A stretch of DNA of 64,000 nucleotides from Psilocybe cubensis (Eukaryota): contig CM039008.1 in NCBI GenBank assembly GCA_017499595.2, forward strand, positions 1,984,001 through 2,048,000. The letters run 5' to 3'. The position numbers and the translations under genes were made by a program. Shown piece after piece: positions 4,801 through 47,618 of the stretch (positions within the stretch are counted from its first letter, which is position 1; each line of letters opens with the position of its first letter). The notes under the pieces were generated by a model, which saw only the letters and a list, made by a program, of their open reading frames with translations, was not told the DNA's origin and searched no databases.

Positions 4801-6259
4801 ATTGGGACTTTCCACAAATGAGGATAACATGCAAAGTATCAGAGAGAGAGACTTGCGTTCATTATGCAACGCTTAAGGACGTTGGCCCTGATACGGGTAA
4901 TCAATCAGTCAGTAACGAGCATCGTAGTGATAGTAGTACTTTACTCACGGAATCGGAGATCGTTTAGAATCTTTGACTAAAGGAACAGTAATGTCCGCAG
5001 AGTCGATAAGAATCAGAAAAAAGAATGATTGAAGCGGGAACAGACAAGCTCTCAGGTATAGGCGTGGACCGACAAGGTGGTGGTAAGGAAGTAAACCGGA
5101 GTGGACCTACGACTTACCCAGGACAGACTCCCAAAGTGAATTCAGGCTCCGATATCATTTTCAATCTCCGACATGTTGCGCCTTCCTGATCAGCATCAAA
5201 CTTCTCATTTGCTTCTCATACGACATCTCGACCCCGTCTCCAACATCATGGCAGACGGACACTGTGTCTCTCTCGTCTTATATTATTATACAGGGTCTCG
5301 CATGCAGACAACGTAGTAAACGCCAAAATACTATATCGCATATCCTAACACCAGTGGTATAGTATAATCTTTTTCCTCCATCATCCACTGTAACTGTTGT
5401 TTGCGCGCGAATTCGATCTATTTGCGCGGTGTCGGTGTCCTCCCAGCTACGTCTACAATAATTATAGATTTATGAAAACCCACAGGCAGTACCTGAATGC
5501 TCATTTGCCAAGGCCATATGAGTACACGTCCGAGACGCACGAGATGCACATCCTTAAATCAAACAATCTCAATCCGACCTGTATCCACATTGCGAAGGAA
5601 TTCCATGCAAGTAAGCAGCAAATGAAAAAAGTAACATAACTCGCCCAGATCTCCAAGACGGCGCGTTTGAACATCAGAATAAGTTGCCCAAGGTCCAGAC
5701 AATGACTTGGTAATCATGGGGCGAACTGCGCCACGGTGTAGTCCGACATCAGAGGCTGGGGAATCCGTTGAGGATAATGGGGCGAATAGTCAAACCAGTG
5801 GGGTATTCAACCCAGGAAATTTCACCGACTACCCTTGAGGTTTGTCTAGACTGATTTTTTTTTTTCATACAGTGTTTTGATGTTCTGGAGATTATTCTGT
5901 CTGCTTGTTTTTCAGTCATTATTGCTCGTATGCTGTGTAGTTTTTATTATGCGTGCTAGATTGATTGCACCATTCGTAAGGCATGTTCTTTAACGATCAG
6001 GATTGAGTGTGTTCTACGTCTCCCTTTTCAAATTCCATTTAAACAAGCTCTTAGTAACCTTTTGCTTATTTTACTGATATTTTTCTGCCAGGTTTGCGTT
6101 GTTCGGCCATCTAGCCCATCTTTTTGCATGTTATCGTGCCAAAGGCTTACGCGCCCACGGAATATCAGTGCAACCTTATCTCTCTTTCATTTGTTTGGTT
6201 ACAATTGTAATTAGTATCAATGCGAACGGTTAAATTTATTTGCACTGCGGGCGCCGACC

Positions 6260-6730
6260 GCTGTAAGTTAAACATACAGCAGAAAACTTACATGTCTTAT
6301 GTAAGTTTCGCTGTAAGTTCGACATACAGCACACGTGTATGAAAAACAAACAGTCGGCAAAGACATATTGTGTTTGGTGGCTGTATGCCGACCAAACACA
6401 ATTGCTGTAAGTAGACTGTAAATAGAATAAACACCGAGATTACACAATTTCTTTTTGTCCGGTGTTAGTATAATATACACAATTGCTGTAAGTCATACAA
6501 ACAGCACTTGTGTAAGTAAAACATACACACAAAGAAAACAAATTGTGTATGTCATACTTACACAATTCCTGTAAGTAAGTGCTGTAAGTTAAACATACAC
6601 CTGAACTTACAGTAATCGACTCGCTGAGCGAGTCGACAAGCGCGCGAAGAATTCGCATTTTTGGCGCGATGTCGACTCGCAGACGATGATAACACGATGG
6701 CATGCGTCGTTCTGGCGACTCGCTGCCCTT
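6260..6730. repeat. Subterminal motif array: TGTAAGT/TGTATG in both orientations, then CGACTCGC motifs and a palindrome (mirror copy at about 44695-45165)
   Basis: About 11 TGTAAGT/ACTTACA copies lie in 6260-6612, interspersed with CATACA/TGTATG. TCGACTCGCT-G-AGCGAGTCGA is at 6616-6636, with more CGACTCGC near 6673 and 6716. Confidence 0.8.
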
Positions 6731-7131
6731 TGAAAAATCTCGCAGTCGTCAATGTGTAGTGCGCGATTCATTAATAAATATGATATATTTTCAGCGTTTT
6801 GCGCAATTCTATTTATTACACTCGTTGGGTACTTAATATAGCTGGCGCCCTACCTGGCGCGCCTACACCCGACTCACCTGCAGACATTGAAAATTCTGAA
6901 TCTTTGGCCTTCCCTAGTGTGAGTCTGCAGTGAGTACTTTAATCTGTTCGTTTGCCATCGTTTGTCACCACCATCTATAAATTGATCCCACTTACACAAC
7001 TTTCCCGCAGCCTTTCTTATCACCAACCACAACCACAACCACTCACTCCCTCGCTCACTCGCTCTTACCGACTACCACCCACATCGATCTCCACACCCAC
7101 CCGCTTATTCGTTAACCGCGAATCTCTTACC

Positions 7132-7693
7132 ATGGCTGCACTCATCTCTCAAGTCGTTTCGGCCATCGTAGGCTTCAAGTATGGGTTGAAGCACAGCATC
7201 GCGTCGGGATGTTGGATAACGGAGCGCGTATCCGCGTATGTGGGGTCGGTTTGTGGGGAGGTCTTTCGTTATATCGAAGAGCGTAGCGATACCCCGGTGA
7301 TGGTCAGAGGTCGCAATCGTACGCATCGTTGAATTTTTTTTTTTTTTGAATCTGCTCATCCCAGTTTCGTTAGGCGCTCAAATCACGGATGTCGAAGCCC
7401 AGAATTTACGCACCACCGACGCTGACTGCAACGCCGACTTCGAGGAAATCGAGGACCTCCTTCGGATTCGTCAAGAAATAATGGATCTTCATACCCTTCT
7501 CGACAACAAACGCGCACTCACCCGGCCTATGACGCCCGAAGCGCACAATATCAACATCGACCGATTCGCTCTCGACCATAGGCACCGGCTGAACGACATC
7601 GCTATCGAGGCGCAGATTCGCGCCAAGTATCCGTCGAGGAACGAGTATCTCGCAATCTGCAAGAAATACGAGGTTTCCCCCTTCCGCACCTAG
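7132..7693 (+). CDS. Inverted-repeat-encoded hypothetical protein, about 170 aa, 2 exons (left copy)
   Basis: ATG at 7132 (MAALISQVVSAIVG...). GTACGC donor at 7319, poly-T tract, acceptor at 7364 or 7373 in a compatible phase. Exon 2 reads AQITDVEAQNL...YEVSPFRT*. Confidence 0.6.
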
Positions 7694-8269
7694 CAGGCGT
7701 TCTCAGCGTCATTCCAGCGTCTTTATAACTTCTTGGGGGACTCACCCACTACCCTACTCCCCGTCATCTTTCTAATCGTTTTCTTGTTTTCTTGCTTTCG
7801 ATTTTCAGTATTTGATCTGCTGTATATACACGCTCACTTTTGTATTCAACGATACCTCTAATGTGTAGTCTACTGTTTCATATTGTATTATACTGTCGCA
7901 TATCCATTTTATTTCTCAGTCAAGTTCACTCCGGTTCATTCATAATTAATGAAATAAGTTGGCTCGCCGAGTGACCCGTTGATAATCGACTGCTCGTATG
8001 ATGGGTGAGTCAGGGAGTTGTGGGTCAAGATGTCCTTTGCGGGGTGTAAACTCTGCGGGTGTTGCGATAGAATTGCCAGTGCCGTATTCGTTCACAAATT
8101 CTCTACATCCTCGCAGAAGCTGCCGGTACAGCAGCAAAACGAACCTCTAAGCACAATCGAAGCTAAAACTACATTTATCGGCACGATGAATTAACGCCTC
8201 CAACTAGACGTCACGATGTGTAACCTAAGACATGGTAATAACGCAGTACGTACCTGTTCATTAACCCGG

Positions 8270-14571: not shown

Positions 14572-16211
14572 CTAAATTTCCCTCATTTGCGTTGAGGAGC
14601 CCGTAATATTGCGCCTTCGAAGTCAAGAAAGCGAACAACTAAGGTAGACATTGCTATTAGATATAAAAGTTGAGGCCAGATGACGAATTCTTACAGCAAA
14701 AAGATATGGTGCCCAGTTAGCGTAAGTGCATGCCATGACAAAAGCAATGAAGGGACCATTGGTTCTGGCATAGTGAAGGAGCGTATTTGCAGGCTGTGTT
14801 TGAGTTTCACCGACGCCAACAAAGGGCTGGCTCCGCTTTTCCCACAGATAGATGAAGCCATTAGAAGATGCTGCAATACAGACTTTGCGACTCTCCGCCA
14901 TGGTTACTGCAATCGCCTGTGTCATGTGAGCCTCTGTGAACATGTTTGAGCGTCAGAAAGCATAAGATACGGCAAAAGATCAAACCTTTTGGACTTGAGG
15001 TAAGGGTCTGCAGAACGTAATTATTGGCTACGTCAAAGATATGTACCTTATTAGTGTGGCTACCGCACACCGACAGTTTCGTGCCTTCAATGAAACGGCA
15101 CTGCTTTATGAAGTATTTGTGGGTGGTCACGGAGTCCCCAACGGCTAGGGTCTGGAGAGGAGACATATCAGGAGTTTGGTAAACATCAAAATTGCCGTTG
15201 TTGAGATTGTTGACGATGATAACAGTCTGGTCGCTCGAAATCGCAGCAGATCCGCTACATGAGCTTATCAGTCGAATATAAGGTAAAATATGTTAATATG
15301 CGTACATCCCACTGGCGAGTTTTTTGGTCCAGAGCACTTCGCCATTGGAAGCGTCCCGACAACAACTAGCAGAATTAAGAACAGTTAGAACAGTTGAACA
15401 GCGTGGTTAATTGATATTACGTTGATAAACATACACGTCACCATTCTCTAGTCCGAAGGACAGCAACTTTTCATTTGTTGACCCGAAGAAGAGGACCGAC
15501 GTCGGAATACCAGGTCGGTTACTGGGAGCTTCCCAGACGAGATTCGCTGAGCCAGCTACAGGCAATAAATAAATGGTACAGAAGAAACCAGGAATAACCC
15601 TTACCGACTGCATCAACAGAATACATCTTAACAGCTCCGGAATGACTGGAAGCAATCAGCCTGCCGTTTATCTTATCAAATACGAGGTTCTCCACGATGT
15701 CATTTGGGGTGAACAGCTGGATTACGGTTCCTCTCTCCGTGAAAGGCTACGAGAGAGAATTAGTGACTCGCTAGGATATCCTCTGATTGGCACACCTTAA
15801 CAGAACGAGAGTCCATTAAAAACATGCTCATACCACCAAAAACATTCCCGACGCATAATACGGTTGAGGGCTCCCTCGAAGGTAATTCGGTATACGCCCA
15901 CGCTAGGCAACTAACTTGCCCCCACTGCTTGTTCTCGAGGACTTGTTCAGTCCGGAAAGTTTCCGTGTTCCATATAAAAACCTTGTCGCGGTCACCTATT
16001 TTGTTGCATCAGATTCTCGTTCCAATAGTGAAAAGCAAAGAAATAGTATACCTGCAGCGACCAAAAATTTTCCATTGCTCGAGAAGAGCAAGTGATCAAC
16101 GTGTTCAATCCCTGGGTTCTTCAACTCCTTCGCAAGGACGAAAGAGCTATTCTGTTTCAACGGTTAAAGTAAATATTCTACATTTCAAATGTCACGACGT
16201 ACCAAGTTCAT
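14572..16211 (-). CDS. WD40-repeat (beta-propeller) protein with a C-terminal hydrophobic segment, multi-exon
   Basis: Exons read HLLLSSNGKFLVAA / GDRDKVFIWNT...WGQVSCLAW / SSHSGAVKMYSV / CGSHTNKVHIFDV / SSNGFIYLWEK / PFIAFVMACTYANW. Introns are canonical GT-AG. Confidence 0.7.
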
Positions 16212-19184: not shown

Positions 19185-19735
19185 TTCGCATTGCCTTGTA
19201 CTTATCAAGAATTTCCCCACAGCGATCACCGATACCCCCTGAGAAAATATCTACCTATTCGGAATTGACACCCCATCTCCAATATATGCAACAACATCAA
19301 CGTCAACGATCGGAGGAAAGATAATCTCGAGCAAGGGTATTAAGTTCCTGCGCCATGCTTCCTGTTCTAATAATTCATGAGTTTGTAACAATGTCAGAGT
19401 CACTGGTTCTATTTAATTTTACCGCGACTTTCTATGAACGAATGCAACCATAAGGGTTTATGTGAAAAAGTCTCCCCATAAGTTGCACCTTCAACTGAAA
19501 ATAATTCTGTATTGCAGGCAACTTACTTTATTTGAATGTCAGGTCGCGTAGAAGGCGCGTCAGGCCCGCATTAGGGTCACGGACTGTCTCGTGAAGATTT
19601 TAATGAATAGTTTAAAGTCCCGAACGTCTATCTCTTTGTTTCGTATGTCCTTTGTGTTTTAAACCTCGAAAGTGTTTAAATAGGCTAAGATCTAATGTGA
19701 AGCCAACTCCCACCTCGTTCCACCCATCCACCATC

Positions 19736-20323
19736 ATGGGCATTTTATGCTTCGCTGTCACAACGCTTGTCGTAGGCACCATGTTGGTCGGCATAGGCAT
19801 TTTAACACACAATGGTTTATGGTTCTTTCTCGCGCTTTTTTCACCCATGACGTTGCTCGCTGTGTTCACTTTTTACGATTATTACACGGTTGTCTACAAC
19901 CCTTCTCCACACCTTTTAAACCTCAATAATTTGAGCTCACGCCCTGCCCCATTATTGCGCTCCGGACTGCGAAGCGAACGTCGTTATATCGTTTCCATGC
20001 CAGTATCTGTCAATACAGTCCGCAGCCTCCTCGACGGTTCTTTCGCTAATTCATATACGCCGACAACTGCCAATATTCTGGAAGCAATCGACCATATTTG
20101 GTCGCAAAACGACATAAACATCATGGAGGTATGCAGTTTTTTTACGGCGTGCTACCTTTGAATCTTAAAGTTCTTGCAGAGAATCCATGGACTTCAAAAC
20201 CCTTGTCGATATCGCTTCCTCCATCGATCGGGCCAAAATATATATCTCGTTACAGACGTCGACCCGTACGGTCCTTCCGCCGAGACCTCGCGATTGGGTC
20301 CTCGTGAATTGGAATATTACTAG
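19736..20323 (+). CDS. Small membrane-anchored protein, paralog A (2 coding exons)
   Basis: Hydrophobic N-terminus and an intron at 20129-20179. NILEAIDHIWSQNDINIME/RIHGLQNPCRY aligns with the gene at 36073. Confidence 0.7.
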
Positions 20324-20928
20324 GACAGGACTCCAACCTGTTCGTATATTTTAACTGCTTGTTCACCGATTCTGTTCTGATTACCTTGTAGTGCGGAATG
20401 TGCAAAGGCGTTCCAGCTTGGCAGTAGCATCTCGGTTATTCGTATATCTTCGCACCCAAGTTCCACTCATGCTTCTATTTTTTTTCTTCTTTCCTCAGTC
20501 TCATCTCGATACTTAGTCCCGCAATAATGTTTTTCTTGTAAATCATATTTAGTTTTGGCTCTATGAATACTTAGTGCAATAATTTTCCGTTGTGTAAAGT
20601 TCACTGCATACGCAAATAGACATCCATTCCTAGGTCGGTTTAATTGTTTTTGCGCGCGACGGAACCCATGGCCAACGCGCGCGATGTTTTGATGCCGATC
20701 AAGACTAGAAAGAGCGTTCAAACCTGGAGATGGCATGGAGATGGCCTGAGAAATAATGTTACTCGCTCAGTGACGAAAGAAAATACGCTCATAACAAGAA
20801 TTAAAGGTAAATTGATCGGAAAACAAACTTTCAAGCTACTGATAACATGGACCACGAAACCGCTATATTAGTCTAAGTAGAAGAATTTTGATATGTAACA
20901 ATTATGAAAAGTTGCGCGCCACGAAATG

Positions 20929-23900
20929 TTAGGTATAGATTGCAGGATTCACCTCGTCGTCCTCCCCTGGAAATGGTTGAGCGGCCTGGGGGTCTAGCAA
21001 TCGTAGTTCAAGGTCGGATAAAGTATTCAACCAGACCGGATTGTAGTAGTTTATGGGGAGTCTAGTTGGGGCAGGCCTCGTACTGTAATTTTGCCCTTGC
21101 CTTAACCGCTGACGGACATCAGGTTGACCTCCGGGGCGCCTACCACCATATGCAGTCGTGGCTGGCAAAGCATTATCGGCATCCGTCACGGTGTTCAGTA
21201 GCCGTGGATTTCGCCAATATAATATCCTAACGCTTCGGATTCCGCGCTCTTCAGAATCGCTCTCGTCGGAACTCATCCCATCATCTCCTAGCGTCACAAT
21301 GGTCCGCGCATGATTTGGCATGTTCGCCTGTTGAGCACTATCAACACGGGTCTCATACAGCTGCAAAGTAAAGGCCGTTAGAGCAAGGAATTCGGACTAA
21401 CTTGATAGCTTACTTTAGTCTGACGACGACGAACCCGCTTAAACCGGTCGCGTCCCTCTTTCTCCATCAACAGTCTATTTCCCGCATCCTGTTCAGTTTC
21501 ATCCCCCCGTGGCATGGCGTTGGACATGTAATCCCTTAGAGTAGTGAGACGCCGAAGGAAACATTGTTCAATTTCTTCCTCTTGCCCCCGATATTCTGGA
21601 TATTGTCGCACTAAAGAATCTGCAAAGAGGTTTGCCATGTGACGGTTCCATTGTGTGTTGACTCTGTCAAAATACAACTGGAAAGGTGTCATTGTCGGAG
21701 GATCTCGTCGTCGGCGCTCTAAACGATCCACTTCAACCTCGTCGGCGATGTGAATATTATCAAGATCGGAGTAGATTTGGCTGTCACGATGATCTGCAGG
21801 GAGATCAAGACATTTGCGCAGATGTAGGCGCACTGCTTGCTAAAAATTCTGGGCTTAAGTAAAGCATTGATATATAGGTAGTAAAAACTATACCGTCAAC
21901 TGTGTGCGGTCAATTGTACGAGGCCTAGCTGGAGCCTTCTCTTTGAAGGGAGACTTGACTTTCGTAGGCGTCTGACGTACTCTGGGTCCTCTTCCGTTTG
22001 CCAAATCATCCCGCAAGCCGTTGACACTGGCAGTCATAGTTTGTATACATTCAATCAGCATGTTATCGGTATTGGGTCGTGGCGAAGGGTGCTGATCATC
22101 GTCTGAAGGCATATTGGGAGCCGTAACGGTCGAAGTCGGATGCCTTGGCGTGTTGGCCATCGGAGGAGCCGGCTGAGCAGTGGCAGGAGATTTTGCGCGC
22201 TGGGCACTGGCACCAGAGCGTTCTGCGTGCCGAGCTTGATAGGCAGCGAGTTGAGGATTTGTACTGGCACCAGAGCGATTTGCATGACGCACTTGATAGG
22301 CAGCGAGTTGAGGATTTGCAGTTGAGGAGTTGGGAGGGACAGATGTGTTAGACGTTCGCACTTCGGAGGCCGAATGTCTTGGCGTGGTTGGCGTGGTAGG
22401 CATCGCTGGAACTGTACGATCAACGACAGGACTGACAGTAGGGCGGGTCGCATGACGAGCTTGATAGGCAGCACGGTAAGGATCATTCACCGCAGAGGTA
22501 GCAGAGGTAGGCGCTATGGTAGAGTTTGAAGCGGGAAGGCGCCCTAGCCGTTGCATAGCAGCGGCAAAGTATCGCTCTGTTGCTGACTGACCTGTAGGAG
22601 GGATAGGGGTCGCGCGGTTAGAATCCCTGCGTCTTTGAGATGGTGGAATTGTGGTATATCTTGTAGGAAAAAAACCCGGAATTATATATCGCCGAGGTGA
22701 TGCTGATCTTGGAACAGGTCTTTGGTGTGTTGTCCCATCTTCCATATGTTCGTCGTCTGAGTCCAGCGGGGGTGACGAATTGGGAGCTCGAGGCGAATTC
22801 CGGAGCGGAGAACTATCTACCATTTCGTCATCTTCATCCCTCGAGGCTTCATTTTGAGGAGGATTTGACGGTGGAACAGCTGATTGTCCGCGCTGGGCAA
22901 TCTAAGATACCTCGTTAGGATCAACAAGATCACCACATACATTATTGCGTACTCGTGAATGTATAGAAAACCCGGCATTGCGCTTGTTGATCCCAATCTA
23001 GAAGACATCGAGGTAAATTATTAGGTACTACGTACGAATGGATTGTTTAACATACCAGCCTCCGCCGGGCATCCAACCTCCTAATTTCCGTTGGTTCATA
23101 ATCATCCTCAGTATTGTGAGTTCTGTTCTTCATAACTGAATTAATGCGAGCCTGCAAAACCTTGGAGGTGTGATCAGAATCGAAGATTGACAAGGAGGGG
23201 AACAGATTTACTTCATTCTTAATTCGTTCGTTCTTTAATATGTCCTCCAACGCACTTGTCGTGTTACCGAATTCGGTATTGCTTGATTCCAGCTCGTTCA
23301 AGCGACCTTGATTTGCCTGACATTGTTGTGCCAGATTGGAAACTTGGAGACGCAGGCTGGACTAATAATGATACCTTATCAGTCGGATTTGTTGAGGCAT
23401 AGGCTAAACTAGAATCCTACCACCGTATCCTCGTAAGTGGCCTTCATTTGATTCATCTCGGCCTGTGCTCTGTATCAGCAACAATGCCATGATTAAAAAT
23501 TGACAGACAAACCATTCGGTTAGTTTGCTCTGCTTTCAGAGCGTTCTCGGCGTCCGCTGATTTTTGTTGATGGAGATCCATTTGGGACTTGAGATCGCGT
23601 TCGAGCGCATGATACTGTTTCTGCGACTCCTCTCGCTGGTTTTGTAATTGTGCTGTAAGGCGGGTTATCTCGTTTGACGCAACACGCAACCGTTCATTGA
23701 GGCCCGTGATAGTTTGTTGATCTTCCACACGTGTCGTGTTTGCGCGCTCTAGCTGTTGTTGGAGAGCATTGATTTGGTCCTGTGCGTGTGCTGCACTTTG
23801 CGATGTGTTGAGATTTGCAATTGTCGAATTCGCGTCCCGGAGCTGTTGCTGAAGAGAGTTAATTTGTTCCTGTGCAAGGGCCGCCGTATTTTGTGAGGCA

Positions 23901-26029: not shown

Positions 26030-26595
26030 ATGGTATCATCGTTGATGACCTTCCGGTCGACTACAAGGGTGAGATGAAATCGAAGTTTATATGAATAACG
26101 ACTCACTTCGACCAAGGATCTCCATATGACCCTTAATGCCAGATATTATGCGGTCGATGCAAACCGTGCTGTAACGAAGAAAATACACACTCTTGCAAAC
26201 GCGAGCGGGAGGAGTCCTAGACTGGACTTATTGATGGGCGGGAAATCGCTGCAGCCACACATACATGACGGCGTGGTGTCGATCGTTAACAAAGGGCGGA
26301 CTACACGCTTTCATATCTTCGTTAAGAATCACAAGTTTCTGCCTCGCAACAAATCTCTTAGACGCTGGGGAAATGCACGATGGAGAGGGGATGTCGTCGT
26401 GTTCCGCAAAGGTCTAAGTCTGGACCTCGTCAATTTCACCATACGGGATGGGAAGTTGGCTGACCACGCAGTGAAGAGGTGAGCTGGCGATACTGAGAGT
26501 ATAGAAGAACGCTAACAGTACCTAGGTTTGTGGAAACTGTTCGCCAACAGCCAAGGTTCCGCATCCCAAAGGACCTCTCCTTCACAATGCCCTGA
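26030..26595 (+). CDS. Small basic hypothetical protein (~155 aa, 3 exons)
   Basis: ATG at 26030 and two GT-AG introns. The core reads FHIFVKNHKFLPRN...WRGDVVVFRKG...VNFTIRD..LADHAVKRF. Confidence 0.65.
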
Positions 26596-27195
26596 GCGAC
26601 TTCTGCTCTATCTGAGCGTCTTCTGCTCTGTTTCCTGTTTTTTCTGTTTCCTGTCTTATTTTGGCGGTTCTCCATCGTTCCGACTTTCGTTCGTTTGTAA
26701 ACTAATTTGTACACACATTTACGATCTACTGTAAATATATTTACTACTACTTACGCACTGAGCGACATGGTGTGTTATGGGTGGAAAGAGAACGAAACCG
26801 TGAGAAAATGCCGACCACGCCATGATGAACCCCCGGAATTTTCAAGCCGCGTTGCCGAGGAGAATACCGCACGCGATAATCGGCTTGAGCGGCTTGAAAT
26901 TCCGAGGGGTACATATTGAGCTACTCAACATATTCTCACGCTTTCTCTTTTCCTCAACGTTAACGACAGCCTTGAGTAGCAGAACCATAGGTACGTTTTT
27001 AAACAATGTTGGTATGAAGTTAGCTAGAGGTGATGTACGTGAATAACAAAAAAAACAAAAATACATGAGTTGAACGAGTCTCCACCTACGAGCACAATAA
27101 GAAAATATGATGCGATCGTGTCTTAATAACGACCAGCTGATGACCACACAGCACAAGCAGTGTAGCGCAGACCAGAGTGTTTCGCGAAAATCGCA

Positions 27196-29917
27196 ATGAA
27201 GAAGGTATGTCATGATTCCTTGATATCTTAATCCGTTTAGGTTAGTAACATTATTACAGATAGATCCCAGAATCCGCCAGTTCCTGGACACCGAAGCTCA
27301 AGTTGACGACGAAATTTCTGAGGAAGACGAACAGACGGGATCCGGAGAAATAGATAGAGAAGGTGAATATTATACTTCAAACACATTTACCCTACTAATA
27401 TAACCCTTGCCATTGAGATGGATTCATCGACGATGATACACCCCCGGATGTTGGGCATTCCGTTCTACCGACCCAGTTATCAGTTCATAGGCATACCGAG
27501 GGAGCATTAGAGCGCTTGATTTCGCGCATCGAGTCCAGAATCAATGCCGCGGGAGATGGGGGATTCGCCATTCCTGAAGATCCAGACGATACACTCCATG
27601 ACAATGGTTTGTTGTACATACCTAGGGCGGATGATTATCCACTGTGGCGGGTTGAATGTAGAGTGCGTACCCTACCGTTATTGACACTGGGCGTTCTAAA
27701 CTGAATGGATCTTCGCAGGTTGGTATTGAAGAACAGGCTGTGATGTCTCTGCTCAGCACAGTCTCGGAAGTACATCAGGTTCGTTCCGCATTCACTCGAG
27801 GATCAACACAGGGCAGTATCTATATCGAATGTAAAATGAACCAAGCCCTCGTCGACCTTCTTCTACGGACACCAGGTGTACTGCGTAACGGCTTGGGTAT
27901 CAAACGACAGCTCATCGACTCTTCAGAGTATAGTCAAGTGCTTGGGATGAGGGATGGTCCCGTGGACGTCGGTGCATGGGTAGTCATCAAGAAAGGCTTG
28001 TACAAGGGAGACGTTGGCGTGGTTTCACAAAAAAGTTTTCAACATGCCCGTATTCTCCTCATTCCTCGGCTACATACGACCCCACAGAACCCCCTCAAGC
28101 GAAAATCATCGACTGTTAAGCCGGCTGCTAAGCTCTTCGATCCGGATCACTTTCGACAGCTTTTCCCAACCGACGTGCAGAGCCGTGGGCCTGATTGCTA
28201 CTGCTTTCGCGATATGGACTTCGAACAAGGGCTTCTGGCCCAAAATTTGGACCACCGTTCATTCACAGTTAACGTCAAGGACATACCCCATGACTTCTAC
28301 ACCATGTTTAGAATGAGCCAACACCCAGCAGTTAATCGCTCGCATATGCCACGCCCGCGCGAATGGACTTTGAAAGAAGGCGACGCGGTTCTCATTTGCA
28401 GCACCCCTTCAACCTCTACGTCGTTTTTTGCCCCAGCTATCTTGAAGGTTATGGATACCTACTATGCGGAAGTCCTCGAAATAGGGACACACGGTGTACC
28501 TCTAGCCGACAACCCAACAAAACGTGTGCCGTGGCAAGAAATCAGGAAGGATGTTAAAATCGGACAACATGTTTGTGTACGGGGTGGACATCATACTGGC
28601 AAGACAGGCTGGGTAGTTGCTCTCAAAGATGATCGAGTTCATTTTGTCAGCAAGAAGTTTGAAGGTGAAATACCTACTTATTTTAGGGATGGTGACGAGG
28701 TCATTGAAGTGAGGTCTCCATTTTGTTATTCGTTCTACTTTTGCAACTCTATTGGCTTACTTATCTCTTGACAGTCAACAGAGGTTTTTGTCAACTTTGT
28801 AGACATTGCAAAGGAGCCCGTCGTGCTGCACCACAAGCACGAGCCAGAACAAACTGCCATAATCCCTTATGTGCGCCAGCCAGAATCTGGTCCCCTTCCC
28901 AAGACGCCTCCACATCCATGGTGTGGAGTAAAAGTGAAGATATCTAAGCAGCACCATCCTCGAAAAGGCGAATACGGAGTAATTCAGGATGTCAAGGAAA
29001 ATCTCGATGACAATACTATAACGTTGCACATGCAGTTGACGCGATACGACCCGAATGCCCCATTTCACAGAATATCAGTCCGTTACGACGACGTCGTTGA
29101 ATTTGCGTAAGCGCATTCCATCTCACACAGGTCATGCAACACTCATTATTTTCAACGTAGATCTTCTCTTGAGCTCGTCCTGTTCCTTGATCCCGGTGAG
29201 GGTCATATTCGACCTACCCCAACGCAAACTTTGTCTACGCCGCAACCCGAGCAAGGTCATGATACATCCGCCCATCACCCTTATCTGATGGAGAGGCCGT
29301 CTGGTAGTGCAACGCCCCTTCCGACACCAGCACCAAATAATTTGTCTTCTCCACCTAGTCCAGCTTGGGACCCCTCTTCGAGAACTCCGTTATCTGATTC
29401 CGTGGCGTCTGATCCATTGTGGATGCCTCCAGCACCACCCCCACATGTCCTCTTGAACCCAAAACTCGTGGGAGTTAAACTGAATGCTGTAGTTGACGGC
29501 GGAGATTTTTCTAAGCAGCTAATTGCAGTGTCTATCGAGCTTCATGGCAACGAGGTTGTTCTCCGACATAAAAAATATCACACATGGATTTCATTAGAAC
29601 CCCGTTGGGTCACCCCTAAATACCCTCATCCAATTCACGACAACAACCTTCTCGTCGTCATAAAAGGAGATCACAGCGGCAAATACGTTCGTCGCATTCA
29701 TCACCGACTAGATCAGCTAACCAAGAAAATCAACATTATTCTATCCGTTGTGGCCAGGACCGTCGGCTCGCCTGATTCCTTAACTGGCGAGCAATTGGAA
29801 CTCGATCCGCAGTTTCTTTGTACTGTTCCCGAAACAAAGAAAGAAAGAGAATTGAACTGGCGTGTCATGAATACAACGCGAGCTATGCATAATCGCGGAC
29901 CTAGTCAAAATCAGTAG
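27196..29917 (+). CDS. Divergent SPT5-like transcription elongation factor (~811 aa, 6 exons)
   Basis: Acidic FLDTEAQVDDE/GFIDD; NGN domain LWRVECRVG...VRSAFTRGSTQGSIYIE; KOW1 GAWVVIKKGLYKGDVG...LLIPRL; KOW IGQHVCVRGGHHTGKTGWV; KOW HPRKGEYGVIQDV; CTR-like ATP..SPAWDPSSRTP; terminal KOW LVVIKGDHSGK. The exons splice in frame. Confidence 0.85.
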
Positions 29918-32022: not shown

Positions 32023-35000
32023 ATGCCCCCTGCAATAGGCGATCGACTCTGCATATGTAAAGTCCACGGGTGCTACGATAATGTGGACCCAGGAACTAAT
32101 CGAAGGGGGAAATTACTTAAACCCAGGGACTTCAGAGCACATCAGCGACGCCAACAAGAAGAAGACCTAAAGCAACAGCAACGCGCCTTGGATGTACAAT
32201 CAAAAACTCTCGCTAAGCATGATCAAGCCATTGAAGAAGCGTTGAGTCGTCTATCACTGTCGGACCCTCAATCAATTCCATCGTTCACATCCCAATTATC
32301 TGATTCCGATTCTCGCTTCGAAACGAAAAAGAGAGTGGCAGCTCAGCTTGGTGGCCTGTTGGATGAAACAGACGTACACAAACGAGGGATAGAAGCTCTG
32401 CAAGTTAATCCCGGACCTCTCACCGACTCTGCATTACTTGGAGGACTGGATAAGTGCTCCTCAGCATATGGATTCATCGAAAGATCTGCGACAGTGCTGG
32501 CCACAGCCAAACATTCGGCGATCCGAAAGGATCCTTCTATCAAAACACTCATCGATAATGCGCAAATGCAGCTCGGCCTACTTCAGCATGATCTCAAGCG
32601 AATCGAAACTCTCTATAGGAAGGAGTTTGGGAAACGCGAAACAGTTGCCGCCTCGACTCCTATGTACAATTCAGGTAACCGAAAGTTCATTCGATATGGT
32701 TCTAGGCTAATATTTATGGAAAAGGACGACATTTTAAGCCCATCCTGGAATCCGCAACTACCATCTTGCAGTTGGTTGCATTCATGGTCGTGTCGGTCCA
32801 AGTTATTTTTGGCGTTCCTCGACGGGGTTGCCATTGGATTTTTCAAATTTCCGAATTTATCATTGAACAAACAGCCTTCAGTGCCTTGGGCTCTTCCAGT
32901 CACTCTACCCTTCCGAACAAAATCAAACTTCTCCTCTCCAAATTCCCTCGCGACGTTCGTACGGCGACGAGCTACTTCAATATCGATGCGGAAAGCACTG
33001 TTTATGCAGCATGCCCCAAGTGTCACGAAATTTATCCGCCAAAATTGGAGTCTGGCGTTCCCATATACCCAGAGAAGTGTCGTGCACGTAGAAGGCCTCA
33101 CAAGCAAGGTGGCCCTGTCAGGTCCTGCAGAGAATTGCTAGTTCGCCCAAAACAGTTTGGGAAAGCCACCATTAACGCTCCAATAAAGCCATACATTGCC
33201 TTCAGCTTCCATGACTGGATGGCCAATCTCTTATCACGCCGCAATTATGAGAAGACGATGGATTCAGCATGGGATAGAATGCAAGAAAACGAAGGCGATA
33301 TCGAGGATATTTTCCAGGCGACATGCATCAAAAACTTCAAAGGACACGACAAAAGGACGCATTTCGGCAAAATCGGCGACAAGGACTCCGGGAGATACTT
33401 ATTTTCTCTTGGATTCGATTTCTTCAACCCTCTGAGGAACTTGGCAGCTGGGAAAAAGGTGTCAATTGGCGTCATCGCGCTGATATGTCTCAATCTTCCT
33501 ATCGATATCCGCTACAAACCTGAGAATATATTCCTAGCGGGTATTATCCCTGGCCCTTCTGAGCCAAGTCTGGACGCCCTTAACCCGTACTTGCGGCCTT
33601 TGGTCGACGCACTACTGCTATTCTGGGATGGAGTTCGCTTTTCAAAGACGGCTCTTTACGAGCTTGGGCGATGTATATATTGCGCTATCATTGCTATTAT
33701 CGCCGATCTTCCTGCTGCTCGAAAAATCGGAGGTTTTTCCTCACATAGTCACGAATTCTTCTGTTCAGTTTGTACTTGCAGCAAAACCAAGAACACTTAC
33801 AACGACATCGACTATACGACCTGGACATGGCGCACCAACGAGTCCTGTAGAAATCGTTCGGAAAAATATCGCAATGCACAAACTCAGGACCTGGCGGATA
33901 GATCCTTTGACTTGTCAGGACTTCGCTCCTCGGAGTTGCTTCGTTTGCCGTACTACGACGCAACCAAGCATCTTCCCATAGATCCAATGCACAACCTATT
34001 TTTGGGTTTGGTAAAGGAACACTTCCAAAATATCTTGGGATGCAAGAAGATTCCGATGGGTGGTCTTCCCGAATCTGCGGCCCATGCAGGCCGTCTATTT
34101 GCTCACGATGCCAATAATTTGGACCCCGATCGCTTCAACGTCCAGCAAAAAGCGAGCATCAGACGCTTGGAAGGATGGCTTAAGGAGCCCTTTCTCCATG
34201 GATCGGACCTACAGTCAACGATTGACAAACATGCCAAACATTGGGCTGGGAAGGGATGCCACCTGGTCTCCTTGATCTACATTGGCAGAGGACTTGGATG
34301 CATCCCGAGCACTGTTACCGAGAACGGGAGGGATTCCCGTGATCCTGATAAGAGGTATCACAAGCCGGAGCTGGCAAAACTAATAGTGGAATGGGTTCGT
34401 TGCACGCCTTTTCTCAAGATCATAAATCTGATCAATTTTACCGTTGTCTTCGCTTTTTCCTTAGCGATCAAGACAGCCAATAGTACTACCGGCCTCCGTC
34501 ACCTCTCCTGGACTAGCCGGCAGGCAGGGATATATATTGACCTCGCAGGAAATGGACGAATTGCGACGAGATATCAGCGCGATAGTGCAACCATCATGGG
34601 CAACCACTATTCCTATATCAATCTCTTCCTCTGGACCGAAGTTAAAGTCGGATCAATGGCGAGCGGCGGGATCTGTTTACCTCCCAATTACTCTCATACG
34701 CTTATGGTCCTCAGATGGGACAGACACTACCAGCCAGGAACGTCGAGATCTCCTCAACATGACGATGGAGTTATTCCAAGCCGTCTCCGTCATCACTTCG
34801 CGGACAACCTCTGCTGCACATGAAAGGTTGTATCTTGGGCATATGCTCACGTACCGTCAAAATTTGGCACGTTTATTTCCTGACTACAATTGCCATCCCA
34901 ATCACCACATGGCAATGCATCTTGGGGAATTCCTTGCGGCGTATGGGCCTGTTCATGGATGGTGGACGTTCCCTTTCGAGCGTATGATTGGGACACTGCA

Positions 35001-35772
35001 ACAAATACATACTAATTACCATCCTGGTAAGCCGTCAATCATAGAACTCTCATGCTCTACCTAACAATACGTGATAGGCGAGTATGAGGCTACGATTGGA
35101 GAATCGTGGCATAGAAGAAGCAATCTTAGGGCACTGTTTTCCAAGGTCACCTGCCCTCCTATCATTGCCAAGTGCGCTTCAATGTTCGAGAGCATCGTCC
35201 AACCTCAGAATCAAAATTTCCTTGCAAACTACGCTACGGACAAGGTGCAGGCGGTTGGAACCGACGATCAAGATACAGATATCATCCTTGACAATAACCT
35301 GTATCGCGACAGACTGGAGGTTGAACTTCCCGACAACATTCTCAATGCATTTACAAACTTCTTCCAAGGCAGCGCTGAGCTGGTATCTACTCGTCATATT
35401 CGTGCAAACTTAATAAATCGATATACATCGGGCCGCATTTCATACACCAGTTCTTCCATCCATGAAGGAAACAGTCAGATTCTGACACCCTCGGGTCCGT
35501 ATTGCATCCAGAACATTGTAGTGTTCCGCAAGCCACTTCTATACGACGATGTCTGGCTTGTCGCAAAACCATTTCGCGCTGCAAAAATCAAGGTCGACCC
35601 CTATATGCGGTATCAACATCTTAGAGCAAAAATATGGAGCAACGAATTGGAGGAATTCATTGAGGTCATTCCCTTGTCTATGGTTGATACTCATTTTTCC
35701 AAGTGCGTCATTCAATGGGAAGGGAAAGAAGTTGCCGTTTGTGTAAGTTTATCTCGAGTTGTATCCGTTTAA
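32023..35772 (+). CDS. CACTA/En-Spm TnpD-type DDE transposase (Transposase_21 + DUF4218-like), about 1,192 aa, 4 exons
   Basis: ACPKC zinc motif; FSLGFDFFNP...CLNLPIDIRYKPENIFLAGIIPGP; ADLPAARK; IDPMHNLFLG; HPNHHMAMHL...GPVHGWWTFPFERMIG. Exons 32023-32674, 32725-34394, 34465-35026 and 35078-35772 join in frame without stops. Confidence 0.92.
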
Positions 35773-40071: not shown

Positions 40072-40976
40072 GTGAGTGTTTGGAATGATTGTATGCGCGT
40101 TTTATTGATAAAGAAATTTTAGCTGTTAGGTGTGCCTGTTGAGGGTGGTTCGTATGTTCCGTATATCGTGATATAACAGTCACCGGACACTCCCTGCGCA
40201 TCGTTCGTGTCTGGATGACTTCCTGTGCACGCTGACTGCGCCTCGTACACTCCATCGCGCAGGTCTGCAACTGCCCGCCTATACACAATAACTGTGCCCC
40301 CCGTATACCCCTGCCTCCGCCGTCGATCCGCTGACTGTTTTGGTGTTGTGCATAACATCCTGAGGGTGTGAGACGGGCGTCACAGCTTACGGTGCCGCAG
40401 GATGCATAGAAGGAGGCAAGAGAGCCAGCATATTGTCTGTAGATATTGTGAATGTTTGGTGGGATGTGCAACCCGATGGGTCACTCACCATCTGGTTTCC
40501 ATCGTACATAGCTTCCTACGACGCGACGCACGCGACTCGTAGAGTGCCGGAAGCACGCAGTTCACCGCGCGCTCGGTGTCTCCCATCTCGCCTGACCTCT
40601 CCTTCGGTAATGGTGCGCTGAGGAATTTCAACTCTTTGTCTCCTTATGCGGCGCATAGTCTGGAAAGTCGTTTCTCCTTGAACAGGCGCGTTTTTTTTGT
40701 GTGTGTTAGTTTTGCAGCGCTGACATATGCGTATAGATCGAGGCCAGACTCGGAGGAGCTCCCACCGGCACCGACGGTGCTATCGCTATCCACGGTGATG
40801 AAGCGTATGTACCGGGACCCGATGATGTACTCGTCTGCGCCGAGGGTGGTGGACCTGTTTGCTCTGAATGCGAAGCGGGCGGCGTAAAATGGAGTCCGAA
40901 ACGGACGACGACGACGACGACGCTGCAACCATCATAAACTCGCTCAAGACTCTCACATTCGGTGTCTCCCGCGGGA

Positions 40977-41160
40977 CAGGAAATCATCCAACACTGCTTC
41001 CACCGACAATTATTTTCCGTCTTCATCCCCGCCCTCGAAGACCCTGAGCCGCGGGTTCACGCTCACACAGCATCGGCGCTCATCAATTTCTGCAAAGGCG
41101 TCGAGCGCGATATGCCCCTGCCCTATTTGGACCCGATTGTCGAGTGGCTTCTGAAGTTGT
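40977..41160 (+). pseudogene. Captured importin-beta3 (Pse1/Kap121/importin-5) HEAT-repeat fragment
   Basis: EIIQHCFHRQLFSVFIPALEDPEPRVHAHTASALINFCKGVERDMPLPYLDPIVEWLLKL. It is an isolated single-exon-sized piece. Confidence 0.8.
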
Positions 41161-41219
41161 CGAAGCACTTCAAGTTCGACTTAGGGGTTGTCGAAGCACT
41201 TCAAGTTCGACTTAGGGGT
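41156..41219. repeat. 31-bp perfect tandem duplication at the junction between two captured fragments
   Basis: GTTGTCGAAGCACTTCAAGTTCGACTTAGGG, two copies. Confidence 0.9.
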
Positions 41220-43400
41220 ACTACTTACCAAGATACCGAAGATAAGATTAGATAAATTGGTGCATGCACGTGACGACACCGTACCAAGTCCACCACGGAG
41301 CCCCCAGCCACTTCTGCTATTGGCAGCGACTGGGTGCAGTTCTCAGCCTCAGGTTTCCTCGACTCAACGCCTGCAATGGCCCCGCTCGTGTCGACGCTAT
41401 TCGACACGGATATGGAGAAGACTACTCCAGTCACCACGACGCTTTCGAGGAAGTCGAGCAAGCGCAGCAAAGCCGTTTCGAGGAAGACCGTCGACTTTTC
41501 GGCTGAACCTGTACCACCCGTCTCACCCCCGCGGCTTGCAGACCCTGTCAAGAAGGAGACGACTGCCATTGTCCGCGCTACCAAGCTCGAAGTCATCGAG
41601 CTTGACGAAGCGTTCATCGATTTCTGGAGCGACTCGCTGCTCGATCCTATCACAGCGACATGGCCGACCTTTATCATCTGCAAGTTTAAATCCACAGTTG
41701 TTCCTCAACTTCTGTACGGCCCCGTTCAAGAGGGCGGCAAGCAGAAGACGCTCAAATGGCTTGTTCTCGAGCAGGCGTTCACTGTGCGGCCCGCGCCACC
41801 ACCATCGCTGTCAGCTGTCCCTCGTCCGGAATCGGCGCGCCCGGTCTCCCCTGCGCTCTCGACGTCGGGCAGGAACCGCTTCAGCTTCTGGAGTATGTCG
41901 CGCACTGCATCGAGCTCGTCGCAGTCGTCGCAGAAGGGCAAGAAGAAGGAAAGAGCGCTGAATGTTGGCGAGATGGGAGAGATTATCGAGGAGCCCGCCG
42001 AGCAGGCTAAGCAGGAGGTTGTGCAGCTGAAGGCGGCGCCGTCCAAGTCCAAGTCATCCAAGGCGGAGAAGGCGCAGATGCCTATCGAGAAACCTGTCGA
42101 GGCCGTGAAGCAGCTTGCTGATACATCCGACACGCCAGACCTCGAGACGGCTGCTATTGTGACTGGAGCCGCAATTACAGACGCAATCGCTGGAGCTGCT
42201 GCTGCTGCCCCTGCCGCTAAGATTCCAGAGCCAGCTGTCGAAATTCAGGCAGAGGCACCAGCGCCAGCTGTTGAGGAGCCTGCCACCGTCAGCGAGACTC
42301 CTGCTGCTGTTGTTGCAGAATCCGTAGCACCAGCTGCAGAAGTCTCTCCTCCTGTCACTGAGGCTCTTGTTATCTCTGAACCCGAAGTTTTGCAACGGAA
42401 GTCGAGGCCCCTGTTCTTGATGCACCCGTTGAAGCTGAACGTGAAGCTGCAGTTGAAGAGATCCAAGTCCAAGCACCCGTCTCCGAACCGCAGCCTTCAA
42501 CGGATGCGCCCTCAGTTGTCGAGGCCCAGGAAACCGCTGTGGAACCATAAATAACTTCTATCGAACCTCGTGCCCCCGTTGTCGAAGCAGTGGTTACATA
42601 GGATGCATCGACTGACGATGACGCAGCTCCTGTTGAAGCTTCAGTCTCGGAATCTCAAGTCGCAGTACCTGAAGCTCCGTCGGCGTCGTTTGTTGCTGAA
42701 GTGGACGAATCTGCACCGGAACCCAAAGCTCCAACAGCTGAAGCTATTGCTCCTGCTGTAGACGCCCGAAGCTCGAGATGAACCCGCTGTCGTTGAGCCC
42801 GAACCACCAGTCGTCACAAGCGTGGAAACAGAAGCAAAGATCCAGTGCTCAAACAAGTCTCTGAAGAGCGTGCAAGTGCAATCGTCGCGGAAGCTCAAGA
42901 GCCAGTCGTTGAGTCTGTGCCGCCGCTTGCTACTGCGGCCAAAGAACCTCTCGTCGCAGCTCCTGCCGAGGTTGCAGAGGTTTTGGTTGAGTCAAATCGC
43001 CCGCCGCTGTTGACGACATACCGTCTACAACAACGAAAACCGCCGCCGTCGCCGACGAAGTCTCAACTTCGAATGTCGAAAAATCTGCGCCTGTTCTGGC
43101 AGCAGATCTTACCGAGGCACCAACTTCGATTACCGAAACTCCCTCAGTTGATGTTGACGCCGCGCAGGAGAGCATTGAGGAAGAACCACGGGTTATGGAC
43201 AACCCCAGTCGCCGAAGTTTCGGGTGCTTCTCAACCTGAAAACCTGTCCCAGGTTCTAGTTTCTGATGTTCCAGTTGCAGTTGAATTACAACCCTTCAAA
43301 GCGGATTACCAGGCTCCTATCGTCGAGGCTCCAGCCGCGGAACCTCAGGTACAACTTTCAACGGGTCAACGATACCCTCGCGCGCCATGTCGACGTACTC
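41220..43400 (+). pseudogene. Captured internal fragment of a large host gene, probably Msb1/Mug8 family, with an Ala/Glu/Pro/Val-rich tail
   Basis: IELDEAFIDFWSDSLLDPITATWPTFIICKFK...WLVLEQ. It lacks an N-terminus, and the acidic tail has several frameshifts. The family assignment is from memory. Confidence 0.55.
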
Positions 43401-43658
43401 GGTTGTAGCCCCAGGAGAATTTGTCCGCGCTGCCGTAGCCAGTTGGGCCTGCAAGCGACGTTAGATGGTGCAAGAAGTACATTGTGAACTGTATCAGTTC
43501 TGTAATGGCTTGAAAATCATTGAATTTACGACAGTATAGCATGTACAATATGAAACAGTAGACTACGTATTAGGTACATTGTGGGGTATGAAATTGATTG
43601 CGTATATACAGCAGACCGAAAATCGAAAGCAAGACAACAAGAAAACAATTAGAAAAGC

Positions 43659-45182
43659 TGACGGGGAGTAGGGTAGTGGGTGAGTCCCCCAAGAAGTTAT
43701 AAAGACGCTGGAATGACGCTGAGAACGCCTGCTAGGTGCGGAAGGGGGAAACCTCGTATTTCTTGCAGATTGCGAGATACTCGTTCCTCGACGGATACTT
43801 GGCGCGAATCTGCGCCTCGATAGCGATGTCGTTCAGCCGGTGCCTATGGTCGAGAGCGAATCGGTCGATGTTGATATTGTGCGCTTCGGGCGTCATAGGC
43901 CGGGTGAGTGCGCGTTTGTTGTCGAGAAGGGTATGAAGATCCATTATTTCTTGACGAATCCGAAGGAGGTCCTCGATTTCCTCGAAGTCGGCGTTGCAGT
44001 CAGCGTCGGTGGTGCGTAAATTCTGGGCTTCGACATCCGTGATTTGAGCGCCTAACGAAACTGGGATGAGCAGATTCAAAAAAAAAAAAAATTCAACGAT
44101 GCGTACGATTGCGACCTCTGACCATCACCGGGGTATCGCTACGCTCTTCGATATAACGAAAGACCTCCCCACAAACCGACCCCACATACGCGGATACGCG
44201 CTCCGTTATCCAACATCCCGACGCGATGCTGTGCTTCAACCCATACTTGAAGCCTACGATGGCCGAAACGACTTGAGAGATGAGTGCAGCCATGGTAAGA
44301 GATTCGCGGTTAACGAATAAGCGGGTGGGTGTGGAGATCGATGTGGGTGGTAGTCGGTAAGAGCGAGTGAGCGAGGGAGTGAGTGGTTGTGGTTGTGGTT
44401 GGTGATAAGAAAGGCTGCGGGAAAGTTGTGTAAGTGGGATCAATTTATAGATGGTGGTGACAAACGATGGCAAACGAACAGATTAAAGTACTCACTGCAG
44501 ACTCACACTAGGGAAGGCCAAAGATTCAGAATTTTCAATGTCTGCAGGTGAGTCGGGTGTAGGCGCGCCAGGTAGGGCGCCAGCTATATTAAGTACCCAA
44601 CGAGTGTAATAAATAGAATTGCGCAAAACGCTGAAAATATATCATATTTATTAATGAATCGCGCACTACACATTGACGACTGCGAGATTTTTCAAAGGGC
44701 AGCGAGTCGCCAGAACGACGCATGCCATCGTGTTATCATCGTCTGCGAGTCGACATCGCGCCAAAAATGCGAATTCTTCGCGCGCTTGTCGACTCGCTCA
44801 GCGAGTCGATTACTGTAAGTTCAGGTGTATGTTTAACTTACAGCACTTACTTACAGGAATTGTGTAAGTATGACATACACAATTTGTTTTCTTTGTGTGT
44901 ATGTTTTACTTACACAAGTGCTGTTTGTATGACTTACAGCAATTGTGTATATTATACTAACACCGGACAAAAAGAAATTGTGTAATCTCGGTGTTTATTC
45001 TATTTACAGTCTACTTACAGCAATTGTGTTTGGTCGGCATACAGCCACCAAACACAATATGTCTTTGCCGACTGTTTGTTTTTCATACACGTGTGCTGTA
45101 TGTCGAACTTACAGCGAAACTTACATAAGACATGTAAGTTTTCTGCTGTATGTTTAACTTACAGCGGTCGGCGCCCGCAGTG
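43659..45182 (-). repeat. Right terminal inverted repeat (1,524 bp), with a degenerate extension to about 43529
   Basis: Reverse complement of 6243-7766, ending in GGCGCCCGCAGTG. Confidence 0.95.
43732..44293 (-). CDS. Inverted-repeat-encoded hypothetical protein (right copy)
   Basis: Mirror of 7132-7693 with identical translations. Confidence 0.6.
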
Positions 45183-47561: not shown

Positions 47562-47618
47562 AAACGTAATCGCATAATTACTAGACAATGGATGTTTCAA
47601 TGTAGCGGTCAAATAAGT

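Follow-up and report, generated by a model that had tools for sequence, protein, structure and literature searches.

The window analysed here, a 64,000-nucleotide (nt) stretch of Psilocybe cubensis DNA (assembly GCA_017499595.2, contig CM039008.1, positions 1,984,001 to 2,048,000), carries an intact and apparently recently mobile giant transposon of the EnSpm/CACTA superfamily (Table 1). An earlier note, written by a model from the letters of this stretch, had proposed a cargo-carrying CACTA element with CACTG/CAGTG ends bracketing 6243-45182, and these ends were found on both arms. The element is closed on either side by an inverted repeat, both arms of which begin CACTGCGGGCGCC. The arms, 35,882 nt apart, are 100% complementary and gap-free over 1,529 nt; the repeat had been described as free of indels, which it is, and as 1,524 base pairs (bp) long, which is slightly too short. 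It is the sole inverted pair of at least 100 nt in the window. BLASTN stretches the pair to 6243-7906 vs 45182-43521 (97.8% of 1,669 columns), and on the inner side of the perfect block 130 of 181 columns match before the similarity ends. Each end holds seven CTGTAAGT/ACTTACAG motifs within ~365 bp, in direct and inverted orientation. Fourteen of the 15 occurrences of these motifs in the window fall in the two ends and one lies elsewhere; no internal cluster, i.e. no internal family terminus, was found in the window.

The element encodes a transposase. The open reading frame (ORF) 32706-34820 matches Transposase_21 (PF02992; E 1.5e-12, 47.6 bits against a cut-off of 28.6), the first of two profiles that the earlier note had proposed to check. 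The region that follows is DUF4218-like: it aligns with the C-terminal parts of three long homologues at 33-48% identity, and one of these homologues bears the source name ‘DUF4218 domain-co...’. Homologues of up to 1,228 amino acids (aa) align across 32044-35733, on both sides of an in-frame stop at 35062-35064 that falls inside a canonical GTAAGC...TAG intron of ~50 nt. Since the stops are located in canonical introns, the transposase is uninterrupted, as had been claimed. Among 8,000 scored candidates, 606 relatives were recovered at E<=0.001, with best identities of ~50%, and the named relatives come from the Agaricales Psilocybe, Galerina, Gymnopilus, Termitomyces and Candolleomyces. Residues D238, D334, C353/C356/C358, D426, H429 and H439 are conserved in 21-22 of the 22 aligned sequences and E438 in 18 of them, and the C353-x2-C356 motif follows the second D (D334). 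Which of these residues form the catalytic triad is our own putative assignment from the alignment. The H(3-4)H motif named in a passage of PMC12730594 was not located with certainty in the transposase. A Transposase_21 transposase combined with CAC..GTG termini places the element in EnSpm/CACTA, and the assignment to a DDE-based element was therefore upheld.

Read depth was determined in four public sequencing runs (X1, X5, X9 and X13) from three studies over window positions 28001-48000; X1, X5 and X9 were analysed as contigs and X13 as raw Illumina reads. Assemblers can create perfect 1.5-kb inverted repeats, and the second repeat could have been an artefact of this kind, arising from a mis-join or fold-back. 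The depth leaves almost no room for such an explanation. The inner part of the repeat, a contig of 1,361 nt, had a depth of 124.6, 77.1 and 26.4 in X1, X5 and X9, while the interior had 61.4, 41.2 and 13.5, giving ratios of 2.0x, 1.9x and 2.0x. X13, read as raw data, had ~25-30 over the repeat and ~15 over the interior, a ratio of about 1.8x. Furthermore, the right arm is connected with the repeat in X1, where the contigs 43159-43688 and 43659-45019 overlap, and the contig 45156-48000 bridges the terminus and the right flank. A repeat at about twice the interior depth in 4/4 runs means that there are two repeats per element, and the second repeat reported earlier is thus genuine. The repeat contig has 3 differences from the window in X5 and 2 in X9, and in each run it is still a single contig at double depth; the arms therefore share changes and evolve in concert. 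Conversion between the arms would be the mechanism that keeps the repeat identical.

The outermost part of the repeat behaves differently from the rest. The terminal bin, 44676-45342, reached a depth of 431.7 in X1, 1047.3 in X5, 359.2 in X9 and 230+229 in X13, tens of times deeper than the adjacent bins in all four runs. In X13, the match to the window ends precisely at 45182 in 714 reads and at 45183 in 303, and the sequences that follow are unlike one another (agreement 0.36 and 0.41). Such high-copy ends, with reads breaking at 45182 into many flanks, identify 45182 as the boundary of a mobile family, for which rough arithmetic gives ~70-125 termini per genome equivalent. Only the outer ~160 bp of the 1.5-kb repeat is common to this high-copy family; the remainder is private to the element. 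As part of the explanation that we favour, we consider it likely that the identical repeat of 1.5 kb is not the functional terminal inverted repeat (TIR) but an inverted duplication private to this element. The raw reads of X13 also contain opposite-strand joints and skips inside the terminal 320 bp (44858-45182), e.g. 44914->45182 and 44858->44860, and hundreds of loose read ends at 44860, 44916 and 45067. These joints and loose ends suggest many short derivatives of the family, of a fold-back type or resembling miniature inverted-repeat transposable elements.

The amount of element DNA relative to its surroundings varies among the runs. Interior depth was 3.7x that of the right flank in X1 (61.4 vs 16.6), equal to it in X5 (41.2 vs 41.2) and X9 (13.5 vs 13.4), and 0.5x in X13 (~15 vs ~29), the last as expected for an element on one of two nuclear haplotypes. 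The long interior contigs of X1 show no differences from the window. The excess in X1 fits the database annotation of P. cubensis, where identical copies occur at several loci. ORF 41274-42551, in the right arm, is 100% identical to the 618-aa ‘hypothetical protein JR316_0007510 [Psilocybe cubensis]’, a protein that appears under three GenBank accessions on three contigs, and an exon of an Spt5-like gene of the element is 100% identical to P. cubensis proteins under five GenBank accessions. All three accessions of the arm gene are four numbers away from one of the Spt5-like protein, and this constant spacing implies the same gene order at at least three loci. P. cubensis thus has 3 to 5 annotated loci, on three or more contigs, with proteins identical to those of the element, a count obtained indirectly, from accession numbers. 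The ratio of observed to expected CpG in the window's copy is ~1.0 throughout, which argues for the youth of the element.

The flank contigs of X5 and X9 match the window from 45183 only and continue beyond this point into unlike sequence, 334 nt of it in X9 and >10 kb in X5. Since they are not joined to the element, the right flank is unoccupied in two runs. Together, the identical copies, the depths of 3.7x/1x/1x/0.5x, the high-copy family termini and the unoccupied right flank point to a young giant CACTA element whose copy number and position vary among strains, and which is most likely still, or was recently, mobile. The suggestion of a young, possibly mobile element was therefore borne out.

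Two further observations concern sequence divergence. In X5, 30 of the 38 listed differences from the window over 28001-43000 are CpG->TpG/CpA changes, and divergence is ~3 per kb in the interior and ~1 per kb in the flank. The 30/38 share is a signature of deamination at methylated CpG and suggests that the element is CpG-methylated in the X5 strain. X1, X5 and X9 each have a contig (depth 82, 85 and 36) that matches only the short, conserved stretches 33691-33715 and 34942-35001 of the transposase, and in X13 the same two stretches are matched by 135 loose-ended reads; these matches point to further, more distant transposase copies in the genome.

We also considered whether the copies could instead be products of duplication, segmental or ectopic, in which a region containing just an old CACTA insertion or a pair of solo ends was multiplied and the transposase does not, or no longer does, mobilise the 39 kb. 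Such an origin would agree with the neighbouring accession numbers of three of the five annotated Spt5-like loci, with the imperfect target-site duplication (TSD) and with the local inverted rearrangement that X5 shows in its right flank. However, the match to the flanks of other runs stops exactly at the CACTG terminus (45182/45183), the same termini occur in a high-copy family with many flanks, the ratio of repeat to interior is 2 in every run despite varying copy number, copies lie on at least three contigs, and the transposase is intact. Duplication of this kind is accordingly improbable. As to X5, its sequence to the left of 45183 begins with a 79-nt match to 47110-47188 in inverted orientation and then goes back 347 nt, which indicates a local inverted rearrangement exactly where the window carries the element. 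This neighbouring sequence was ruled out as the window's left flank, from which it is dissimilar; no similarity was found between 5000-6242 and 46700-47300, or between the two flanks.

The genes of the element other than the transposase were called from a codon-usage score trained on clear exons, together with homology. The set comprises gene A, gene B, an ORF with a 120-aa domain, the Spt5-like gene, a small gene borne by both arms of the repeat and a truncated host-type gene; ORF 11870-12268 was also counted, on codon usage and homology. The earlier figure of about nine other intact core genes is roughly right only if everything is counted. Pfam returned nothing for 7/10 and 10/10 large ORFs in two scanned sets, the first of which covered arms and flanks, and no TET/JBP domain was found in any scanned ORF.

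Table 1. Coordinates of the element and of the features within it (positions in the 64,000-nt window)
Feature	Positions	Strand	Description
Whole element	6243..45182	.	38,940 bp, CACTG...CAGTG ends
Perfect inverted repeat, left arm	6243..7771	+	1,529 nt; ~2x depth of the mirrored right arm in 4/4 runs
Perfect inverted repeat, right arm	43654..45182	-	1,529 nt; one 1,361-nt contig (43659-45019) at double depth
Degenerate continuation of the repeat	7772..7950 (mirror ~43475-43653)	+	~72% identical
Left subterminal region	6243..6620 (mirror 44805-45182)	+	7 copies of CTGTAAGT/ACTTACAG
High-copy outermost ~160 bp	45020..45182 (mirror 6243-6405)	-	From terminal-bin depth and reads breaking at 45182/45183
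Candidate TSD, left	6240..6242	+	TTG
Candidate TSD, right	45183..45185	+	TTA, 2/3 match to TTG
EnSpm/CACTA transposase	32044..35772	+	Transposase_21 with DUF4218-like C-terminus; intact, >=3 introns
Repeat-borne small gene	7132..7693 (mirror 43732-44293)	+ (mirror -)	Two exons, ~175 aa; from codon score
Gene A	20929..22950	-	Spliced; P/S-rich N-terminal part; conserved C-terminal motif
Gene B	23453..25939	-	Coiled-coil; element-specific cargo; internal repeats of 165 nt (x3) and 135 nt (x2.4)
120-aa-domain ORF and divergent Spt5-like NGN/KOW gene	26030..29917	+	26030-26479 and 27162-29917
5'-truncated conserved Agaricales gene	41214..43435	+	Annotated in P. cubensis as JR316_0007510 and others
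HEAT-repeat fragment	40938..41252	+	Weak, E 0.01; importin-like by eye
WD40/beta-propeller-like fragment, left arm	14864..15292	-	Weak, E 8.3e-5, far under the curated cut-off
Old direct duplicate	19526..20488	+	Of 35852-36766, just downstream of the transposase; from sequence similarity

The genes were compared with the best 80 of 381 confirmed metagenomic loci that hold related transposases. An exon-3 homologue of gene A, which includes its C-terminal motif, occurs at 14 of the 80 loci, in 13 of the 14 upstream of the transposase and on the same strand. The 120-aa domain occurs within 10 kb of the transposase at seven of them (L002, L009, L011, L036, L038, L063 and L080). No locus of the 80 contained gene B, the small gene of the repeat, the arm gene or the NGN/KOW part. 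From this occurrence, gene A and the 120-aa domain are genes of the family, and the rest are passengers. Gene A has no Pfam match, and its Atlas matches are only unnamed Basidiomycota clusters (0.97, low recognition, 1935). The repeat-borne gene has the top codon score per residue in the element, with no Pfam match and no usable Atlas match.

In the unit formed by the 120-aa-domain ORF and the Spt5-like gene, internal stops fall in canonical introns. The 120-aa domain has many short relatives in the protein library and no Pfam match, and its invariant residues include I62, F78, N84, H85, L88 and N91 (numbering of P0160). Its predicted structure reached a pLDDT (predicted local distance difference test) of 75.2, with four other models at 44-57, and no fold could be assigned; structure searches gave a best E of 0.038 with Foldseek and a best Z of 5.0 with VIA, under that tool's meaningful level. 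The NGN and KOW matches of the Spt5-like gene to Pfam are weak (E 1e-6 to 1e-3), and its paralogues within and between P. cubensis and P. cyanescens are 37-55% identical; on both grounds the canonical housekeeping SPT5, for which one conserved orthologue with strong matches to NGN, KOW1-5 and the acidic N-terminus would be expected, was rejected as the identity of this passenger. The Spt5-like family is large, with 1,101 representative clusters when E<=0.001 is allowed and 97 at the stricter E<=1e-30. A P. cyanescens paralogue has the 120-aa domain N-terminally, which suggests that the 120-aa and NGN/KOW modules travel together. Among ten long or N-terminal Spt5-like matches that were scanned, none is fused to a transposase domain and six contain NGN. 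Since NGN/KOW was absent from all of the 80 related loci, of which 17 are at least 10 kb long, the link between Spt5 and transposons comes from Psilocybe only.

The arms between the repeats and the gene core hold fragments of other genes. The conserved gene of the right arm lacks an N-terminal domain of ~160-190 aa that is present in 7/8 orthologues from other Agaricales, and this domain has no match anywhere in the window; the right-arm gene is therefore a captured, truncated copy. The stretch 41.3-43.3 kb has surplus depth in three runs (X13, X5 and X1), consistent with a native copy of the captured gene at another place in the genome. In X13, ~40 reads show a 58-nt ‘goes back’ joint at 42255-42312 with 11 extra letters, 20/82 reads have a 3-nt deletion at 42308, and half-frequency single-nucleotide polymorphisms occur at 41559 and 41564; these variants at 41559-42312 fit a second, native allele of the gene. 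Where the HEAT fragment meets the truncated gene there is a perfect 31-nt tandem duplication (41156-41219), of which X5 has one unit fewer (skip at 41155-41187). In the left arm, the region 8-20 kb has mostly no coding signal by the codon-usage score. The picture of arms full of gene debris consequently held for the truncated gene and the weak HEAT and WD40 fragments, and failed for the mostly noncoding left arm. The proposed layout of TIR, captured-fragment arms and gene core is broadly right.

The arrangement of genes and ends bears on how the element was assembled. Two related elements, or one element and an inverted partial copy of it, may have come to lie head to head, for instance by aberrant sister-chromatid or reversed-ends transposition, so that only the outer 5'-type ends act together now. 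Such a composite or macro-transposon origin is compatible with present mobility as one unit, and would account for both ends being one 1.5-kb sequence, promoter-proximal gene included, with no distinct 5' and 3' subterminal regions. Inverted colinear patches ~7 kb inside the ends (13233-13516 vs 38850-38781 and 14061-14175 vs 38035-37891) agree with it, as do the orientation of gene A, which here runs opposite to the transposase and not on its strand as at 13 of the 14 related loci, and the duplication at 19.5-20.5 kb of the stretch downstream of the transposase. They suggest that the element may have arisen from an inverted partial duplication of which only the outer 1.5 kb is still homogenised. 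However, the left half contains no second transposase remnant at E<=1e-3, the arms are nearly wholly unrelated outside the repeat, and an internal family terminus is absent, so that we regard the composite origin as a minority possibility.

The explanation that we favour, with a probability of about 0.8, is that the 38.9 kb form a real, intact, giant autonomous EnSpm/CACTA cut-and-paste element, one member of a family in a P. cubensis-type genome. Its own DDE transposase would recognise the CACTG termini and subterminal regions of ~160-380 bp with their repeated CTGTAAGT motifs, cut out the complete 38.9-kb element and insert it again, creating a 3-bp duplication. The ~160-bp ends would be common to roughly a hundred termini per genome, mostly those of short derivatives, and because so many termini share them, the element is the likely source of transposase for the larger family. 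The repeat contains a small gene, and conversion between its arms would maintain their identity. The interior would consist of three parts: family-typical genes (transposase, gene A and the 120-aa-domain ORF), lineage-specific passengers (the divergent Spt5-like gene and coiled-coil gene B), and, in the arms, pieces of host genes that would have been acquired in the manner of Pack-CACTA elements. The data show the structure, an intact transposase, a genuinely doubled repeat, identical copies at several loci, copy numbers that differ among runs and termini with many flanks; that all 39 kb move together, by cutting and pasting, that conversion acts on the arms, and what the passenger genes do, we infer from these features.

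Several points weigh against this explanation. The 3-bp flanks are imperfect (TTG vs TTA, 2/3 identical), and exchange of flanks between element copies is one possible cause of the mismatch. DUF4218, the second of the two profiles proposed for checking, is matched by the ORF that follows the Transposase_21 domain below the Pfam cut-off (20.2 vs 27 bits). The depth data cover the right 17 kb of the element, and the sequence left of 45183 in X5 differs from the window's left flank. The copy count is indirect, and with three of the five Spt5-like loci closely numbered, local or segmental duplication could explain some copies. Finally, clear termini or long repeats were not seen in the 80 related loci.

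Comparison with known systems places the element close to EnSpm/CACTA elements such as maize En/Spm and fungal EnSpm. It shares with them a Transposase_21-type DDE transposase with a DUF4218-like C-terminus, CAC..GTG termini, subterminal motifs in two orientations and a candidate 3-bp TSD. As in those elements, the transposase is accompanied by a second ORF conserved in the family (gene A), and there are numerous short derivatives with only the ends in common. Canonical CACTA elements have TIRs of tens of bp. Unlike them, this element is 38.9 kb long with one sequence at both ends, its 1,529-nt perfect repeat contains a gene and is identical between the arms, and it adds the Spt5-like gene, gene B and the 120-aa-domain ORF. 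For fungal EnSpm elements, section 3.1.5 of PMC12730594 gives CAC..GTG termini and 3-bp TSDs as hallmarks, and passages of the same paper report families from rusts and Agaricus; a CACTA TIR length of 28 nt is given in a passage of PMC8978399. Plant CACTA elements are described, in parts of PMC6379663 and PMC8978399, as capturing gene fragments. The host gene fragments between the subterminal regions and the core (truncated gene, HEAT and WD40) resemble those of plant Pack-CACTA elements; unlike these, which a passage of PMC6379663 describes as non-autonomous, the present element is fungal and has an intact transposase. It was not classed as Pack-CACTA, since captured fragments are present but an intact transposase is encoded.

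Plavaka elements, of the CMCT group in Agaricomycotina, have a related transposase and occur in the same host group, and some homologues of the present transposase carry PF18759 together with PF02992. Their termini are given in section 3.2.2 of PMC12730594 as TGT..ACA (A) or CATCA..TGATG (B), with 2-3-bp TSDs. Unlike them, this element ends in CACTG..CAGTG and its ORF has no PF18759 match; membership in Plavaka was rejected on the termini. Cryptococcus KDZ1-3, according to passages of PMC12810828, are large basidiomycete DDE elements of ~9-11 kb with TIRs of 139-241 bp, 4-8-bp TSDs and demonstrated mobility. They are likewise large DDE transposons of basidiomycetes with TIRs longer than usual; they belong to another superfamily, however, and are a quarter of the size, with TIRs about ten times shorter. 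With Starships the element shares a length of tens of kb, passenger genes, and a copy number and position that vary among strains. Starships use a tyrosine-recombinase captain (DUF3435) at one end, whereas mobility here would depend on a DDE transposase and inverted-repeat ends. No captain match and no tyrosine recombinase was found among the 50 ORFs and proteins scanned with Pfam (ORFs >=110 aa, which do not include all small or heavily spliced genes), and the element was not assigned to the Starships.

The suggestion that the element might represent an undescribed class did not hold: its transposase is of the ordinary Transposase_21/DUF4218 type and has hundreds of relatives in the Agaricales, and its termini and fragment capture are already known. 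The superfamily, termini, subterminal motifs, second ORF and gene-fragment capture are all familiar from CACTA elements, and the element is a variant within the EnSpm/CACTA superfamily, not a separate class. What is distinctive is a length of 38.9 kb in a fungus, a 1.5-kb gene-bearing repeat that evolves in concert, the Spt5-like passenger and the apparent recent activity. The literature searched, which was incomplete and excluded supplements, contained no description of a DDE element of this size in mushrooms and nothing relevant on giant or cargo-carrying DDE elements in Basidiomycota/Agaricomycetes, long-TIR CACTA elements in fungi, transposon-encoded Spt5 or P. cubensis transposases. We think it rather doubtful that the element belongs to an undescribed Agaricales lineage of giant cargo CACTA elements, with kilobase gene-bearing repeats kept identical by conversion and an RNA-polymerase-II elongation-factor paralogue of their own, the Spt5-like NGN/KOW protein. 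If it did, the Spt5-like factor would drive transcription through, or evade, silencing based on CpG methylation, and the large, fast-evolving Spt5-like family would be largely transposon-borne.

To our knowledge, giant cargo elements of fungi have so far been tied to the tyrosine-recombinase Starships of ascomycetes. Here, an ordinary CACTA transposase is apparently able to move ~39 kb of DNA in which complete genes travel together with fragments of host genes. The species is cultivated, and with a copy number from 0.5x to ~4x and a position variable between strains, the element is a likely source of structural variation between them. It thus offers a natural system for the size limits of cut-and-paste transposition, the maintenance of end-repeat identity and gene capture, and the transposon-linked Spt5 paralogue offers a testable tie between transposons and the transcription and silencing machinery.

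In the window, no tRNA genes were found, and no ORF crosses the rejoined flanks. The right flank contains a gene for a GLE1-like mRNA export factor (49344-50664, minus strand; PF07817, E 5.9e-27), and the element therefore sits in gene-bearing DNA. The left flank has a 126-nt tandem repeat at 4333-4631 (2.4 copies, 80% matches). Run X9 contains just 0.68 of the words sampled from 1501-11500, and part of the left flank may thus be strain-specific.

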